Notes: a model not told the origin generated them from the sequence alone. Positions 13,371 through 18,375 are shown, counted from the first letter of the stretch. The stretch: 64,000 nucleotides of DNA from Candidatus Moraniibacteriota bacterium (GCA_963743885.1 CAVURJ010000002.1:109020-173019); one strand, 5' to 3'. Program-made: numbers and translations.

Positions 13371-14027
13371 TCAGAATTTGATGAGCGTCTTGTCGGCGCC
13401 AGCGTTCCGTCGGTACGAGATGATATCGAAATCATATCCATCACCGCGGCAGCGTATCTCGATGCCGGCCTCCGGAAGATGCCAGCATGTGAACTTCTCT
13501 GGGCTTGACATGCTGTAAGAATGCCTGATTTTACGCTCGATGCGTAGGGCACGTACGGTATGTGGAGTGCCATCGATGGAACGGATGGAGATGTTTTCCC
13601 ACCCGGAGATGTACCCCTCGGTAACGGTGGATCCGCGCTTTCCGTCTGAGGCGGACCAGGCGGTCGTCTTGGACCAGGAACTTCCCGGGCAGATCGGGTA
13701 ATTGTAGTACATCGAATCGTATTCGAAACGGAGTTCTCCAAACCTGCCGGCCCAACGGTTTACATGGTTGAGATCGCTCGTGAGAGTGCCGTTCCAGTTA
13801 TCCACGAATCGGCCTTGGGCGTCGGTTTTCACGATTCTGTACTGCCATTGTTTTCCGGCCCGGTTTTCATACACCCACATGTCGCCGACCGAATAAGCGG
13901 GGCGTCCGATGCATTCTTTTTGTTGCGTGGATGCCTCGGACGCTTGGTTCGATTGCGCATTCGCAGCGGAGAAAGGCATGATGATAAACGACAGGGCGAG
14001 AAGAAGCGATGAAAGAAAGCTTTTCAT
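13371..14027 (-). CDS. Secreted protein (signal peptide), paralog of ORF 17737-18375
   Basis: Signal peptide 'MKSFLSSLLLALSFIIMPFSAANA'. Conserved blocks shared with its paralog: YSVGD.W, Y.YPI.PG.SW, (D/Y)GKRGS, RALRIERK, FTCW.LPEA..E.RC.GDG.DF. Confidence 0.55.
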   Translation of the reverse strand: MKSFLSSLLLALSFIIMPFSAANAQSNQASEASTQQKECIGRPAYSVGDMWVYENRAGKQWQYRIVKTDAQGRFVDNWNGTLTSDLNHVNRWAGRFGELRFEYDSMYYNYPICPGSSWSKTTAWSASDGKRGSTVTEGYISGWENISIRSIDGTPHTVRALRIERKIRHSYSMSSPEKFTCWHLPEAGIEIRCRGDGYDFDIISYRRNAGADKTLIKF

Positions 14028-14111
14028 GGAAACCTCCGAGTTGTTAAGGTATGGGGGATGTCATATACTGAAGTAGATGACATACTGGCAATATGCACCT
14101 TTTTTGTAGTT

Positions 14112-14123
14112 TTGTCAAGTATT
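14112..14123. promoter_or_regulatory. TTGTCAAGTATT motif immediately upstream of ORF 14128 (shared with 18460-18479)
   Basis: The identical 12-mer also occurs as part of a palindrome upstream of ORF 18553. Confidence 0.4.
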
Positions 14124-14127
14124 CGCT

Positions 14128-16514: not shown

Positions 16515-16526
16515 TGATTTTTCGGT

Positions 16527-17630
16527 ATGGGTGCGAATCTCCTGTATTACACGACAAAAATTACGGTTGACCCAGAAAATTTTCATTTTTCTGGCATGCG
16601 CCTTCTTGGGCGATTTACGAGCCTGTATGGACCGCTGGTGGATTTTATCGATAGGACCGGTACCATAGTGACGCCGATCCGTACTGCGTCAATGTTTCCG
16701 ATGCCGGCGTATCGGCCGATTACGAAGACGTTTGAGGAAATTTGCAATGAGCGGGCGCAAGAATTGTTGGCGCGCGCTGATCAGCTCAATGCCCGTTTTT
16801 ATGTCTCTTATTCTGGCGGTATCGATAGCACGCTAATGCTTGTATCCTTGCTCAAGAACGCGACGTTGCGGCAGAAAGAGAATATCGTAGTCCTGCTTTC
16901 TGATGAATCCATAGCAGAAAATCCGAATTTTTATCGGGACCACATCTGGGGGAAACTCCGGACTGATTCTATCGAGATGTTCCCGTATCTGCTCGGTACG
17001 GACGCCATGTTCGTCGGCGGCGAGCATAATGATCAGTTGTTCGGATCGGATATGATGGGCAAGCTAATCGTTCGTTTCGGCCCGGAAATCATCCAACAGC
17101 TGTATAAGAAAGAGACGTTCCGTACGTTTTTCGGGGAATTGCTTGGCGATGATGTTGAGGCGCGGGAGTTTTATCTTGATCTGTTCGAGCGATTGAAGGA
17201 TGCTGCACCGATTCCTATCGTGACGAACCATGATTATCTCTGGTGGATCAATTTCTCGCTGAAGTGGCAGGTCGTATTTATGCGTATGTTGTCGCGCATC
17301 TCTCCGAGGAATGCGCCTCGTATAGGTAAGGGATATCTCCGGACAAGGTACGATCATTTTTATACCACTGACGATTTTCAATTATGGAGCTTGAATAATC
17401 CTGAGAAGAAGATCAAGGATAGGTGGAATACTTACAAGTGGCCGTGCAAGGATATCATCTATGGGTATACGGGCGATGCCGAATATCGCGACCACAAGAT
17501 AAAGCGCGGATCGCTGTATTCCGTTCTTGCACAACAGGCGTCATTTGGTTTCATCGATGATTCGATGATGTTCCATCGGTCGCTTGATTTGAGCAAGTAT
17601 TATAATGAAAGCAATGACTTTGCGCGTTGA
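16527..17630 (+). CDS. Stand-alone asparagine-synthetase-like PP-loop ATP pyrophosphatase (AsnB C-terminal domain homolog, no glutaminase domain)
   Basis: 'FYVSYSGGIDSTLMLVSLL' is the SGGxDS PP-loop, preceded by the AsnB-type helix (EEICNERAQELLARADQ). At 367 aa it is too short to carry an N-terminal glutaminase domain. Confidence 0.55.
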   Translation: MGANLLYYTTKITVDPENFHFSGMRLLGRFTSLYGPLVDFIDRTGTIVTPIRTASMFPMPAYRPITKTFEEICNERAQELLARADQLNARFYVSYSGGIDSTLMLVSLLKNATLRQKENIVVLLSDESIAENPNFYRDHIWGKLRTDSIEMFPYLLGTDAMFVGGEHNDQLFGSDMMGKLIVRFGPEIIQQLYKKETFRTFFGELLGDDVEAREFYLDLFERLKDAAPIPIVTNHDYLWWINFSLKWQVVFMRMLSRISPRNAPRIGKGYLRTRYDHFYTTDDFQLWSLNNPEKKIKDRWNTYKWPCKDIIYGYTGDAEYRDHKIKRGSLYSVLAQQASFGFIDDSMMFHRSLDLSKYYNESNDFAR

Positions 17631-17736
17631 TAGATACCTATTTTCTAGCGTGGTTGAGATAAATAAAATCAGGTATGAGCAAAAAAAGTCCTATACCGAT
17701 TCCGGTATAGGATCCATGCTTTTGAAGGCTTGGCCG

Positions 17737-18375
17737 TCAAGGTTTCTTCGTGAGCTGCACGCTTTGGCCGGACCTTTGCCAAGAAACGACATTGAAGTCC
17801 CGCCCGTCGCCTTGGCAGCGCACCTCTGTAGCGGCTTCGGGGAGATACCAGCACGTGAAAGTAGTCGGTAGATTGTCGCCGGGCAGCACACCTTTTCGCT
17901 CTATACGGAGCGCGCGTAAGCGTCTTTCCTCGCCGGTTTCCAACGAAATAGTGATGATCTCCCAGTCTTTCACCGCAACCTCGAAGGGAGCCGATCCTCT
18001 CTTCCCGTAGGAGTTTGTCCAGTTCACGTATCCGTTCCAGGATTTCCCAGGGTATATCGGATAATCGTAGTACCGGTTGTCTGGGCTGAAAGTAATGGTA
18101 CCGCCTCTTCCAAACGTCCGGACTTTGTTGAAGGCGGGATTGCGTACATCGCCTTGGTTATCCGTGATGTTGCCGGTTGGATCGATGCTTTCCACGCGGA
18201 GCACGGTCACTCCGTTTGGTGCCTGGATGGTCCATTGATCACCAACGGAATAGACGGGCTGCTCAATACGGTCTTCCATGGGCGAAGCCGCGGCCTGCTG
18301 ATCGGTCGCCAGAACATGCGCCGAGGAGGTAAGGCCAGCAAGTATTGCTAGAACAACGAAAGAAAAGCGTTTCAT
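17737..18375 (-). CDS. Secreted protein (signal peptide), paralog of ORF 13371-14027
   Basis: Signal peptide 'MKRFSFVVLAILAGLTSSAHVLA'. Shares conserved blocks with 13371-14027 (see that feature). Confidence 0.55.
   Translation of the reverse strand: MKRFSFVVLAILAGLTSSAHVLATDQQAAASPMEDRIEQPVYSVGDQWTIQAPNGVTVLRVESIDPTGNITDNQGDVRNPAFNKVRTFGRGGTITFSPDNRYYDYPIYPGKSWNGYVNWTNSYGKRGSAPFEVAVKDWEIITISLETGEERRLRALRIERKGVLPGDNLPTTFTCWYLPEAATEVRCQGDGRDFNVVSWQRSGQSVQLTKKP

Follow-up and report, generated by a model that had tools for sequence, protein, structure and literature searches.

A putative azole-peptide gene cluster of CPR bacteria that includes an AsnB-like synthetase-domain protein with a conserved partner

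Background

Gene clusters for linear azol(in)e-containing peptides (LAP), or thiazole/oxazole-modified microcins (TOMM), in which YcaO and a SagB-type dehydrogenase are encoded beside a Cys/Ser/Gly-rich precursor, are the closest described counterparts of the locus analyzed here. In a data set enriched in bacteria of the Candidate Phyla Radiation (CPR), 110 LAP clusters were identified in 93 genomes, 89 of them with a nitroreductase next to YcaO (Sharrar et al. 2020, PMC7298704); going by the counts in the accessible part of that report, such clusters are otherwise uncommon in CPR. The same part describes YcaO, nitroreductase, peptidase and precursor genes in the CPR clusters, and makes no mention of a phosphoribosyltransferase (PRTase)-propeller fusion, an AsnB-like enzyme, a sodium:solute symporter (SSF) or the proteins denoted below g05 and g08. 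Here we describe a locus in a 64,000-nucleotide stretch of DNA from Candidatus Moraniibacteriota bacterium (GCA_963743885.1 CAVURJ010000002.1:109020-173019), which is referred to as the window and from the first letter of which all coordinates are counted. An initial annotation of the window singled out two paralogous genes for secreted proteins (secA and secB) that bracket a PRTase-propeller gene, a gene without family assignment (g08) and a gene for an AsnB-like PP-loop enzyme (g09), and took this arrangement to suggest a cassette or a segmental duplication and, speculatively, a second modification system. The analysis presented here indicates that the three enclosed genes probably belong with the neighboring YcaO cluster, which is found in many of the ultra-small CPR bacteria, and do not form a cassette of their own.

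The AsnB superfamily, to which g09 is compared below, includes AsnB, beta-lactam synthetase (beta-LS), the carbapenam synthetase CarA and the hydroxyamidotransferase TsnB9. Further members are the lasso cyclases and the C-terminal amidotransferases of thiopeptide pathways.

A conserved gene cluster in CPR bacteria

The cluster in the window spans approximately positions 9266 to 20863, from SagB through SSF. Open reading frames (ORFs) were called with a simple longest-ORF heuristic, and the features are as follows.

9266-10018, plus strand: SagB-type FMN dehydrogenase (azoline to azole); TIGR03605, 122 bits (cut-off 78.4), and PF00881
10015-11613, plus strand: YcaO cyclodehydratase of the TOMM/SagD type; PF02624, 169.7 bits
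11720-12058, plus strand: putative precursor peptide, 112 aa, recognized by sequence inspection
12091-13155 (possible start 12055), plus strand: g05, helical-repeat protein with a transmembrane (TM) anchor
13371-14027, minus strand: secA, predicted secreted protein, 218 aa, paralog of secB
14111-14123, minus strand: 13-nt motif AATACTTGACAAA in the divergent intergenic region upstream of secA
14128-15780, plus strand: type I PRTase similar to orotate PRTase (OPRT), fused to a PQQ/ACSF4-type beta-propeller
15843-16514, plus strand: g08, 223 aa, partner of the PP-loop enzyme
16527-17630, plus strand: g09, stand-alone AsnB-family synthetase-domain protein, 367 aa
17688-17713, both strands: hairpin resembling a bidirectional terminator, located where g09 and secB converge, with an 11-bp stem and T-runs on both strands
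17737-18375, minus strand: secB, second predicted secreted copy, 212 aa, paralog of secA
18459-18471, minus strand: the 13-nt motif again, here upstream of secB
18553-19266, plus strand: metal-binding cupin, 237 aa when translated from the ATG at 18553 (the reading frame is open from 18517); PF07883, E=4e-8
19409-20863, plus strand: SSF; PF00474

All five ORFs named in the initial annotation are present, and the plus-strand block at 14128-17630 has the composition described there. This block is a single operon of the PRTase-propeller gene, g08 and g09, with gaps of 62 and 12 nt and the terminator at 17688-17713; the cupin has a terminator of its own (19279-19306). No extra copies of g09, g08, cupin or sec were found within the window. 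Judging by sequence, the locus at 9266-20863 fits the definition of a LAP cluster, with YcaO (also matched by TIGR03604 with 208 bits, slightly below the cut-off of 219), the FMN dehydrogenase and a Cys/Ser-rich precursor, and appears to add to it a conserved gene set and a precursor architecture that the accessible part of the published account does not describe.

For comparison, loci with g09 homologs were fetched (32 from GTDB species genomes, 80 from metagenomes and 80 from IMG/VR) and compared by tblastn and all-against-all clustering of ORFs; these loci (denoted by L and a number) come from peptide-pattern scans, among the matches listed, so that the fractions given here and below differ from unbiased population frequencies. 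The CPR-type set consists of 23 loci in which g09 is at least 43% identical to that of the window and is flanked by at least 1.5 kb on each side. Within 10 kb of g09, SagB is encoded in 11, YcaO in 10 and a PRTase-propeller homolog (37-47% identity) in 9 of these 23 loci. SSF lies within 3 kb of g09 in 7 of them and in 7 of the 93 other loci; SSF homologs with 64-75% identity are neighbors of g09 in L001, L003, L006, L038, L198 and L199.

Among the relatives with a long contig, L198 (GCA_052034975.1) is the closest, its g09 being 63% identical to that of the window. The gene order in L198 is AMP-binding enzyme, SagB, YcaO, an 81-aa ORF, g05, sec on the minus strand, g08, g09, SSF and an 850-aa tetratricopeptide repeat (TPR) protein, and the stretch that begins with SagB and ends with the TPR protein (903 aa in the window) is colinear in the two loci. 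The window differs from L198 in having the PRTase-propeller between secA and g08, and secB (minus strand) and the cupin (plus strand) between g09 and SSF. Elsewhere, the same genes are shuffled: in the Moranbacteria locus L003 the order is PRTase-propeller, SagB, YcaO, a 64-aa ORF, a g05-like gene, g09, g08 and SSF, with the PRTase-propeller directly 5' of SagB; in L008 and L017 it is YcaO-SagB-PRTase-g08-g09; and in L015 and L199 YcaO and SagB are on the opposite strand. The PRTase-propeller is located directly 5' of g08-g09 in L008, L017, L018, L201 and L203. That the genes stay together while their order and strand vary among the loci speaks for selection on clustering.

YcaO is missing altogether from some clusters. 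In L001 (Kaiserbacteria), the precursor is Cys-free and there is no YcaO or SagB, yet the PRTase-propeller, g08, g09 and SSF are retained. In L203, an enzyme of the MbnB_TglH_ChrH family (PF05114) with a 158-aa partner (4488-5853) replaces YcaO and SagB beside PRTase-propeller-g08-g09. These two arrangements indicate that the PRTase/g08/g09 block follows the pair of the peptide and g05 more faithfully than it follows the azole enzymes. The initially suggested second, separate system is not supported: in CPR, the three genes travel with YcaO, SagB, the precursor and g05, which in the window lie just upstream. A metagenomic locus with a more distant g09 (L100, 36% identity) has the order SagB-YcaO-g09-cupin.

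The putative precursor in the window starts with a Lys-rich N-terminal part and a TM helix, followed by the junction ASADTP and a tail rich in Gly, Ser, Asp, Glu and Cys (...DGWDCSSSGCGCAGCAGSSAGSSASGAGAGAGAGAGAGAGGG), which contains 4 Cys and many Ser residues and ends in a (Gly-Ala)n run, encoded by a GGTGCT hexanucleotide repeat (~12004-12045), and then GGG. In the loci fetched via g09 homologs, 14 distinct analogous small ORFs are found upstream of g05 homologs; they share the Lys-rich start, the single TM helix, a junction of the form A-[H/Y/R/S]-A-D-x-P and, after it, a tail rich in Gly, Ser, Asp, Glu and Cys; in 10 of the 14, the last residue is Gly. The N-terminal TM helix and the conserved A-x-A-D-x-P junction, which recurs in analogous peptides of 13 other loci and resembles a cleavage site, set these precursors apart from those of LAP/TOMM clusters. 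The g05 gene always follows the precursor gene. Its product has no match in Pfam, is homologous to a ~385-aa protein (cluster c12) of other CPR loci (hhalign probability 100%, E=1.5e-40), and is 30% identical to the homologs in the same position in L039 and L198.

The genomic location of the cluster also varies. In several Paceibacteria and Kaiserbacteria (L001/L010, L201, L202/L009, L203), it is inserted between tuf/rpsJ (S10) and rplC (L3), interrupting the near-universal S10-L3 junction, whereas in the window and in L198 it adjoins the 23S rRNA gene instead. L203 additionally encodes a full-length AsnB (GATase_6/7 and Asn_synthase domains) 1.7 kb downstream, and in L200 an L-asparaginase, a possible source of ammonia, is encoded two genes downstream of g09 (5198-6172).

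The g09 protein and its partner g08

Search of a collection of 5.8 billion proteins yielded 906 g09 homologs at E<=1e-3. The best 120 of these, 50-66% identical to g09, carry no functional names, and the named organisms among them are Moranbacteria, Kaiserbacteria and Paceibacterota. Nothing significant was found for g09 in Pfam, NCBIfam, PADLOC or PHROGs, and its sole recognizable sequence feature is the PP-loop SGGIDS (residues 96-101), with S96-S101 invariant in 39 sequences. In particular, PF00733 does not match the window g09 at E<=0.01, and 9 of the 39 homologs match it with a best E of only 0.022; compared to Pfam as a whole, none of the 39 family members reaches a family (best E 0.017). 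Sequence and profile searches against PDB matched the P-loop and nothing more.

All structures used here are predictions. An AlphaFold (AF2) model of g09 built from the 39-sequence alignment (pLDDT 95.7) is more similar to the synthetase domains of AsnB, beta-LS and CarA than to other PP-loop ATPases, with GMP synthase, NadE, PAPS reductase, TilS (7.4), LarE and TtuA all scoring 8.6 or lower; the closest structural match is TsnB9, a small-molecule enzyme according to the title of its PDB entry. Residues 164-175 (GGEHNDQLFGSD), in which E166 and D169 are invariant in the 39 sequences, probably correspond to the GE-G-x-D-E-x-FGG motif typical of AsnB, beta-LS and lasso cyclases. The fold and the motifs thus mark g09 as a predicted AsnB-family synthetase domain, in agreement with the initial annotation, and by analogy with that superfamily it would catalyze ATP-dependent adenylation of a carboxylate followed by attack of a nitrogen nucleophile. 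The likeness to AsnB, beta-LS, CarA and TsnB9 consists in the SGGxDS PP-loop and the GE..D..FG motif with its invariant Glu and Asp. However, g09 lacks the N-terminal Ntn (N-terminal nucleophile) glutaminase domain (no GATase_6/7 match), is too divergent for PF00733, and is encoded alongside a separate partner protein of ~220 aa; furthermore, its synthetase-type Rossmann core with the PP-loop, which starts near residue 88, is preceded by a conserved N-terminal extension of ~65 residues in which D42-R43 is invariant. The description that suits g09 best is that of a new family of the AsnB superfamily that depends on a partner.

The partner, g08, is predicted to consist of a small N-terminal beta domain and a helical bundle, with the invariant residues W71, W73, K102, Q127, K134, Y146, Y160, E190 and R193. 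No family match was detected in Pfam, NCBIfam, PADLOC and PHROGs, apart from a weak one to phrog_8983, a family of unknown function. The g08 gene adjoins g09 in all 23 CPR-type loci, and a g08-like gene does so in 67 of the 93 lower-identity loci; the two g08-like clusters are homologous (hhalign probability 98.4%). In phage loci, g08 often overlaps the start of g09 by 4 nt (for example, in L110, L139 and L183). We found no description of the g08-g09 module in the literature.

In some loci the pair is elaborated. A 509-aa double methyltransferase is encoded between g08 and g09 in L199 (5700-7229), and a similar one precedes g08 in the Bdellovibrio-like L019. Several viral and CPR contigs (L183, L172, L147, L139, L011) carry up to 3-5 g09 paralogs each, often with a g08 for each copy, and some of these paralogs are fused or extended to 410-433 aa. 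Such multiplicity suggests several sequential or parallel amide-forming steps.

The PRTase-propeller fusion

The first gene of the operon is predicted to encode a fusion of two domains. The PRTase-like part (residues ~30-186) matches TIGR00336 with E=7.6e-20 and 71.4 bits, below the equivalog cut-off of 106.8, and PF00156 with 24.6 bits (cut-off 26.3), whereas the ~350-aa propeller part matches PF13570 with E=1.6e-56. The loop for binding phosphoribosyl pyrophosphate (PRPP), VVLVDDLMNTGQS, is present and, together with the overall match to the pyrE model, constitutes the likeness to PyrE and other type I PRTases. Unlike PyrE, this protein falls below the equivalog cut-off, is fused to a PQQ/ACSF4-type propeller and is encoded in a peptide-modification cluster rather than in a pyrimidine operon. 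No signal peptide or TM segment was detected in it.

The g08-g09 module in phages and other bacteria

Outside CPR, g09 homologs with 28-40% identity are found in Bdellovibrionales, Tenacibaculum, Polynucleobacter (in a prophage-like region), Pyrinomonadaceae, Xanthomonadaceae, Thermoanaerobaculia, Fuerstiella and Archangium. Above all, they are abundant in uncultivated viral contigs: among the pattern matches listed for IMG/VR, 491 of 600 were confirmed as g09 relatives, with PhoH, exonucleases and a metallophosphoesterase of phage families as neighbors. By contrast, 50,697 records of cultured phages yielded a single weak match (25% identity), automatically annotated as "mnmA".

The usual third member of the module outside CPR is a cupin. 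A cupin of the window's type is encoded within 3 kb of g09 in 47 of the 93 lower-identity loci with flanks, compared to 2 of the 23 CPR-type loci, and the window cupin is 55% identical to a homolog from Tenacibaculum and 53% identical to one from Pyrinomonadaceae, both of which adjoin g09 homologs. Given the 55% identity to the Tenacibaculum protein and the rarity of this gene in CPR-type loci, the window cupin appears to have been acquired horizontally, completing the g08-g09-cupin triad. Other genes recurring near g09 in the 93 loci encode a second, more distant PP-loop family (22 loci), a fatty-acid desaturase (19) and a conserved protein of ~100 aa (19); several copies of g09 are present in 16. 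In bacterial loci, the genes around the module encode racemases, AMP-binding enzymes and an ATP-grasp-like ligase, as well as methyltransferases, a carrier protein and SSF transporters. For example, L025 encodes an Ala racemase, a glutathionylspermidine (GSP)-synthase-like ligase, an AMP-binding enzyme and an Asp/Glu racemase, L019 the double methyltransferase and a carrier protein, and L171, as judged from sequence alone, PanD-like and sugar-dehydrogenase-like proteins.

Low-complexity ORFs reminiscent of the CPR precursors occur in some of these loci. In the planctomycete Fuerstiella sp. (L031, 76-960), a 294-aa ORF located 1.8 kb upstream of a g09 homolog and a cupin ends in GGGGDGGDGGSGCGGGCGGE, similarly to the tails of CPR precursors, and the viral loci L180 and L182 contain poly-Gly or Gly-Ala ORFs near the module.

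Proposed role of the g08-g09 pair

With moderate confidence, we propose that g08 and g09 form an ATP-dependent, amide-forming tailoring module that probably acts on the precursor peptide encoded at 11720-12058. Most likely, g09 together with g08 would activate a carboxylate as an acyl-adenylate, converting ATP to AMP and pyrophosphate, and the activated carboxylate would then be passed to ammonia or an amine to give an amide. In CPR, the substrate would most likely be the precursor peptide, modified either at its nearly universal C-terminal Gly or at Asp/Glu side chains, whereas YcaO and SagB would, where present, form azoles from the Cys and Ser residues of the precursor. The PRTase-propeller might supply or attach a PRPP-derived group or recruit the peptide via the propeller; g05 and the sec proteins, which are predicted to be extracytoplasmic, would handle the exported peptide, and SSF would import a co-substrate. 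The pairing of the block with two classes of peptide-modifying enzymes, YcaO/SagB and, in L203, MbnB/TglH, favors this proposal.

Several observations weigh against peptide tailoring. There is no recognizable fold of a RiPP (a peptide made by ribosomes and modified after translation) recognition element (RRE) in g08 and, to our knowledge, no precedent for a PRTase in peptide maturation. Within the available flank, YcaO and SagB are present in only about half of the CPR-type loci. The g08-g09(-cupin) module mostly occurs without YcaO, and its phage (PhoH, exonuclease) and bacterial contexts fit a small-molecule substrate equally well. In addition, the conservation of the neighborhood in related CPR genomes could derive partly from shared ancestry, and the fractions of loci are biased by the pattern scans that produced the listed matches.

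The most serious competing possibility, although a less likely one, is a small-molecule pathway of g08-g09 with the cupin and SSF. A carboxylic acid, either imported or endogenous, would undergo amidation or conjugation, the cupin would oxidize it, and in CPR the PRTase would add a phosphoribosyl group; the proximity of the YcaO genes in CPR would then reflect co-regulation or shared ancestry. The predominance of loci without YcaO, the frequent cupin, second PP-loop family, desaturase and SSF genes near the module, including those in phage contigs, the neighboring enzymes in L025, L019 and L171, the asparaginase of L200 and the small-molecule activity of TsnB9 are all consistent with such a pathway. 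However, the linkage to the precursor and g05 holds across CPR despite rearrangement of order and strand, and the block associates with two different classes of peptide-modifying enzymes; moreover, no candidate substrate can be named, and CPR genomes generally encode very little small-molecule biosynthesis.

Within the peptide-tailoring scheme, an unlikely and highly tentative elaboration is that the product of the operon is a peptide-(phospho)ribosyl conjugate. In this reading, g09-g08 would adenylate either the C-terminal Gly or Asp/Glu side chains of the acidic, Gly-rich precursor and link the activated carboxylate, as an amide, to an amine derived from PRPP; the OPRT-like PRTase would make or deliver this amine, with its propeller holding the peptide. 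The chemistry would resemble the formation of glycinamide ribonucleotide.

It is improbable that g09 modifies nucleic acids, that is, tRNA or phage DNA, in the manner of TilS, MnmA or QueC. The abundance of the family in phage contigs, in regions rich in genes for DNA metabolism, the "mnmA" label of the sole relative from a cultured phage, the class I methyltransferases with a faint CmoB-like match in some loci, and the location of the cluster between rpsJ and rplC or beside the 23S rRNA gene in several CPR genomes could be read in this way. Yet the TilS and LarE models reach only the P-loop of g09 (E ~0.03-0.07, 12-14 bits compared to cut-offs of 94-606), as does the QueC model, also far below its cut-off. 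Neither the cut-offs of the curated models nor the closest structural similarity places g09 with TilS or MnmA. The GE..D..FG motif, which we take to be typical of the AsnB family, and the lack of an evident RNA-binding domain also speak against this function, and the label is an automated annotation of a protein with only 25% identity.

Still less probable is a cryptic lasso-peptide-like system in which macrolactam formation would fall to g09, and g08 would serve as leader protease or RRE. The analogy with lasso peptides, drawn in the initial annotation, finds some support in the AsnB-like fold of g09, which lasso cyclases are generally known to share, and in the constant small partner gene. 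However, g08 shows no transglutaminase, peptidase or PqqD match and lacks conserved Cys or His residues from which the active site of a protease could be built, and no B protease and no PqqD/RRE or transglutaminase domain was found in its neighbors either. Nor is there a lasso-type precursor ORF in the gaps between genes: those at 13156-13370 and 18376-18552 hold only ORFs of 23-38 aa, most of them with non-ATG starts, and the remaining gaps are 12-106 nt long. The precursor that is actually linked to the block is a long, low-complexity peptide rich in Gly, Ser, Asp, Glu and Cys.

Several further ideas were considered and dropped for lack of evidence, namely, NAD or purine salvage (nicotinate mononucleotide (NaMN) to nicotinamide mononucleotide (NMN); carboxyaminoimidazole ribonucleotide (CAIR) to aminoimidazole carboxamide ribonucleotide (AICAR)), synthesis of osmolytes of the ectoine or N-acetylglutaminylglutamine amide (NAGGN) type, amidation of uronic acids and modification of ribosomal proteins.

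The secreted paralogs and the flanking DNA

Alignment of secA and secB over 210 residues (38% identity, 53% positives, E=3e-43) indicates a paralogy far beyond chance, as initially annotated. Both N-termini look like signal peptides on inspection, with a Lys/Arg-containing start, a hydrophobic stretch and an AxA-like site; five Trp (W51, W118, W124, W143, W182) and two Cys (C181, C193) are invariant in the two proteins. Neither protein has a significant family match in Pfam, NCBIfam, PADLOC or PHROGs, and a search of the 5.8-billion-protein database with secA returned only secA itself. An exhaustive search of 1.84 billion representatives with a profile of the family retrieved 186 clusters at E<1e-3, 18 of these at E<1e-10; the family thus appears to be sparse and narrow. 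Among 24 relatives, 6 match PF21347 (best E=4.9e-7) and 4 match PF11306, so that secA and secB are probably remote members of the DUF3108-like families, which they resemble in being predicted extracytoplasmic proteins of ~200 aa, and from which they differ in matching no Pfam model themselves and in their sparse distribution. Instead of being widespread in unrelated contexts, the family recurs within this cluster in L039, L198 and L200, three relatives that each have one sec homolog (24-30% identity) adjoining g05.

This distribution explains the bracketing. The position of secA, beside g05, is common to L198 and L039, whereas there is no gene at the position of secB in the colinear L198. The 13-nt motif AATACTTGACAAA, which includes the -35-like hexamer TTGACA, occurs in two exact copies, one upstream of each paralog, and nowhere else in the window; upstream of secA, a promoter scan identified TTGACA-17-CATATT at 14118-14090. 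Thus, secB is an additional copy that retains a promoter-like motif, and the 38% protein identity implies that the duplication is old; secA is the copy in the position shared with relatives. The bracketing of the operon by the paralogs results solely from the extra secB-cupin pair that this genome carries between g09 and SSF, and not from their delimiting a mobile unit. Collectively, the sec proteins are probably an extracytoplasmic accessory, restricted in its lineage distribution, to the part of the cluster that comprises the precursor and g05.

It is extremely improbable that the block is a mobile or recently duplicated cassette with the paralogs as its boundaries: although these lie in the same orientation on either side and each has the upstream motif, their divergence is that of an old duplication, the DNA common to the two flanks amounts to the coding similarity and the 13-nt motif, with no long direct or inverted repeats (the longest shared element is 23 nt at 83% identity, 13 nt of it exact), no unassigned ORF of the size of a recombinase, transposase or integrase is found in 13156-18552, where there is no room for one, the enclosed genes occur without such flanks in dozens of genomes and more than 100 loci, and L198 has the ancestral-looking order sec-g08-g09-SSF with a single sec gene.

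In the Paceibacteria loci, a ~183-aa P-loop kinase-like gene converges on g09 at the position of secB (L201, 11492-12043; L202, 11107-11658; L203, 11094-11648). It was considered as a diverged secB and rejected (hhalign probability 0.1%); no homolog of this gene is present in the window.

Other features of the window

Immediately 5' of SagB, positions 8144-9226 encode a RidA-domain protein with a weakly FkbO/Hyg5-chorismatase-like N-terminus, where L198 has the AMP-binding enzyme; upstream of SagB there is also a 544-aa ORF without a family match (6503-8137). In the region 24315-29105, the 23S rRNA gene is 4595 nt long compared to the 2925-nt model, with insertion(s) of ~1.7 kb that are probably intron(s), and is followed by the 5S rRNA gene. 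In L198, a LAGLIDADG ORF is found at the matching position downstream of the TPR gene. No 16S rRNA gene was found between 11000 and 30000 of the window. Far from the 23S and 5S genes, positions 59990-62013 hold five tRNA genes in a row (Ala-TGC, Ile-GAT, Met, Met, Asp).

Conclusions

The metabolism of CPR bacteria (Patescibacteria) is minimal, and gene clusters whose conservation extends over several of their classes offer rare insight into the interaction of these organisms with their hosts. The YcaO-encoding "LAP" clusters of CPR are now linked to a PRTase-propeller fusion, an AsnB-like enzyme with its partner, a TM-anchored helical protein and SSF, as well as to a membrane-anchored, acidic, Gly-rich precursor with a conserved junction. 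The g09 family is large, with more than 900 clusters at 90% identity, has no annotation in Pfam, NCBIfam, PHROGs or PADLOC, and is AsnB-like by predicted fold. Should the operon indeed produce a peptide-ribosyl conjugate, it would represent a new class of ribosomal peptide-nucleotide hybrids, displayed on or released from CPR cells, and phages would have taken up g08-g09(-cupin) for a related task of carboxylate amidation. More generally, if the peptide is the substrate, the g08-g09 pair would carry out a new RiPP tailoring reaction; if it is not, the pair would belong to a new auxiliary pathway of phages and CPR bacteria.

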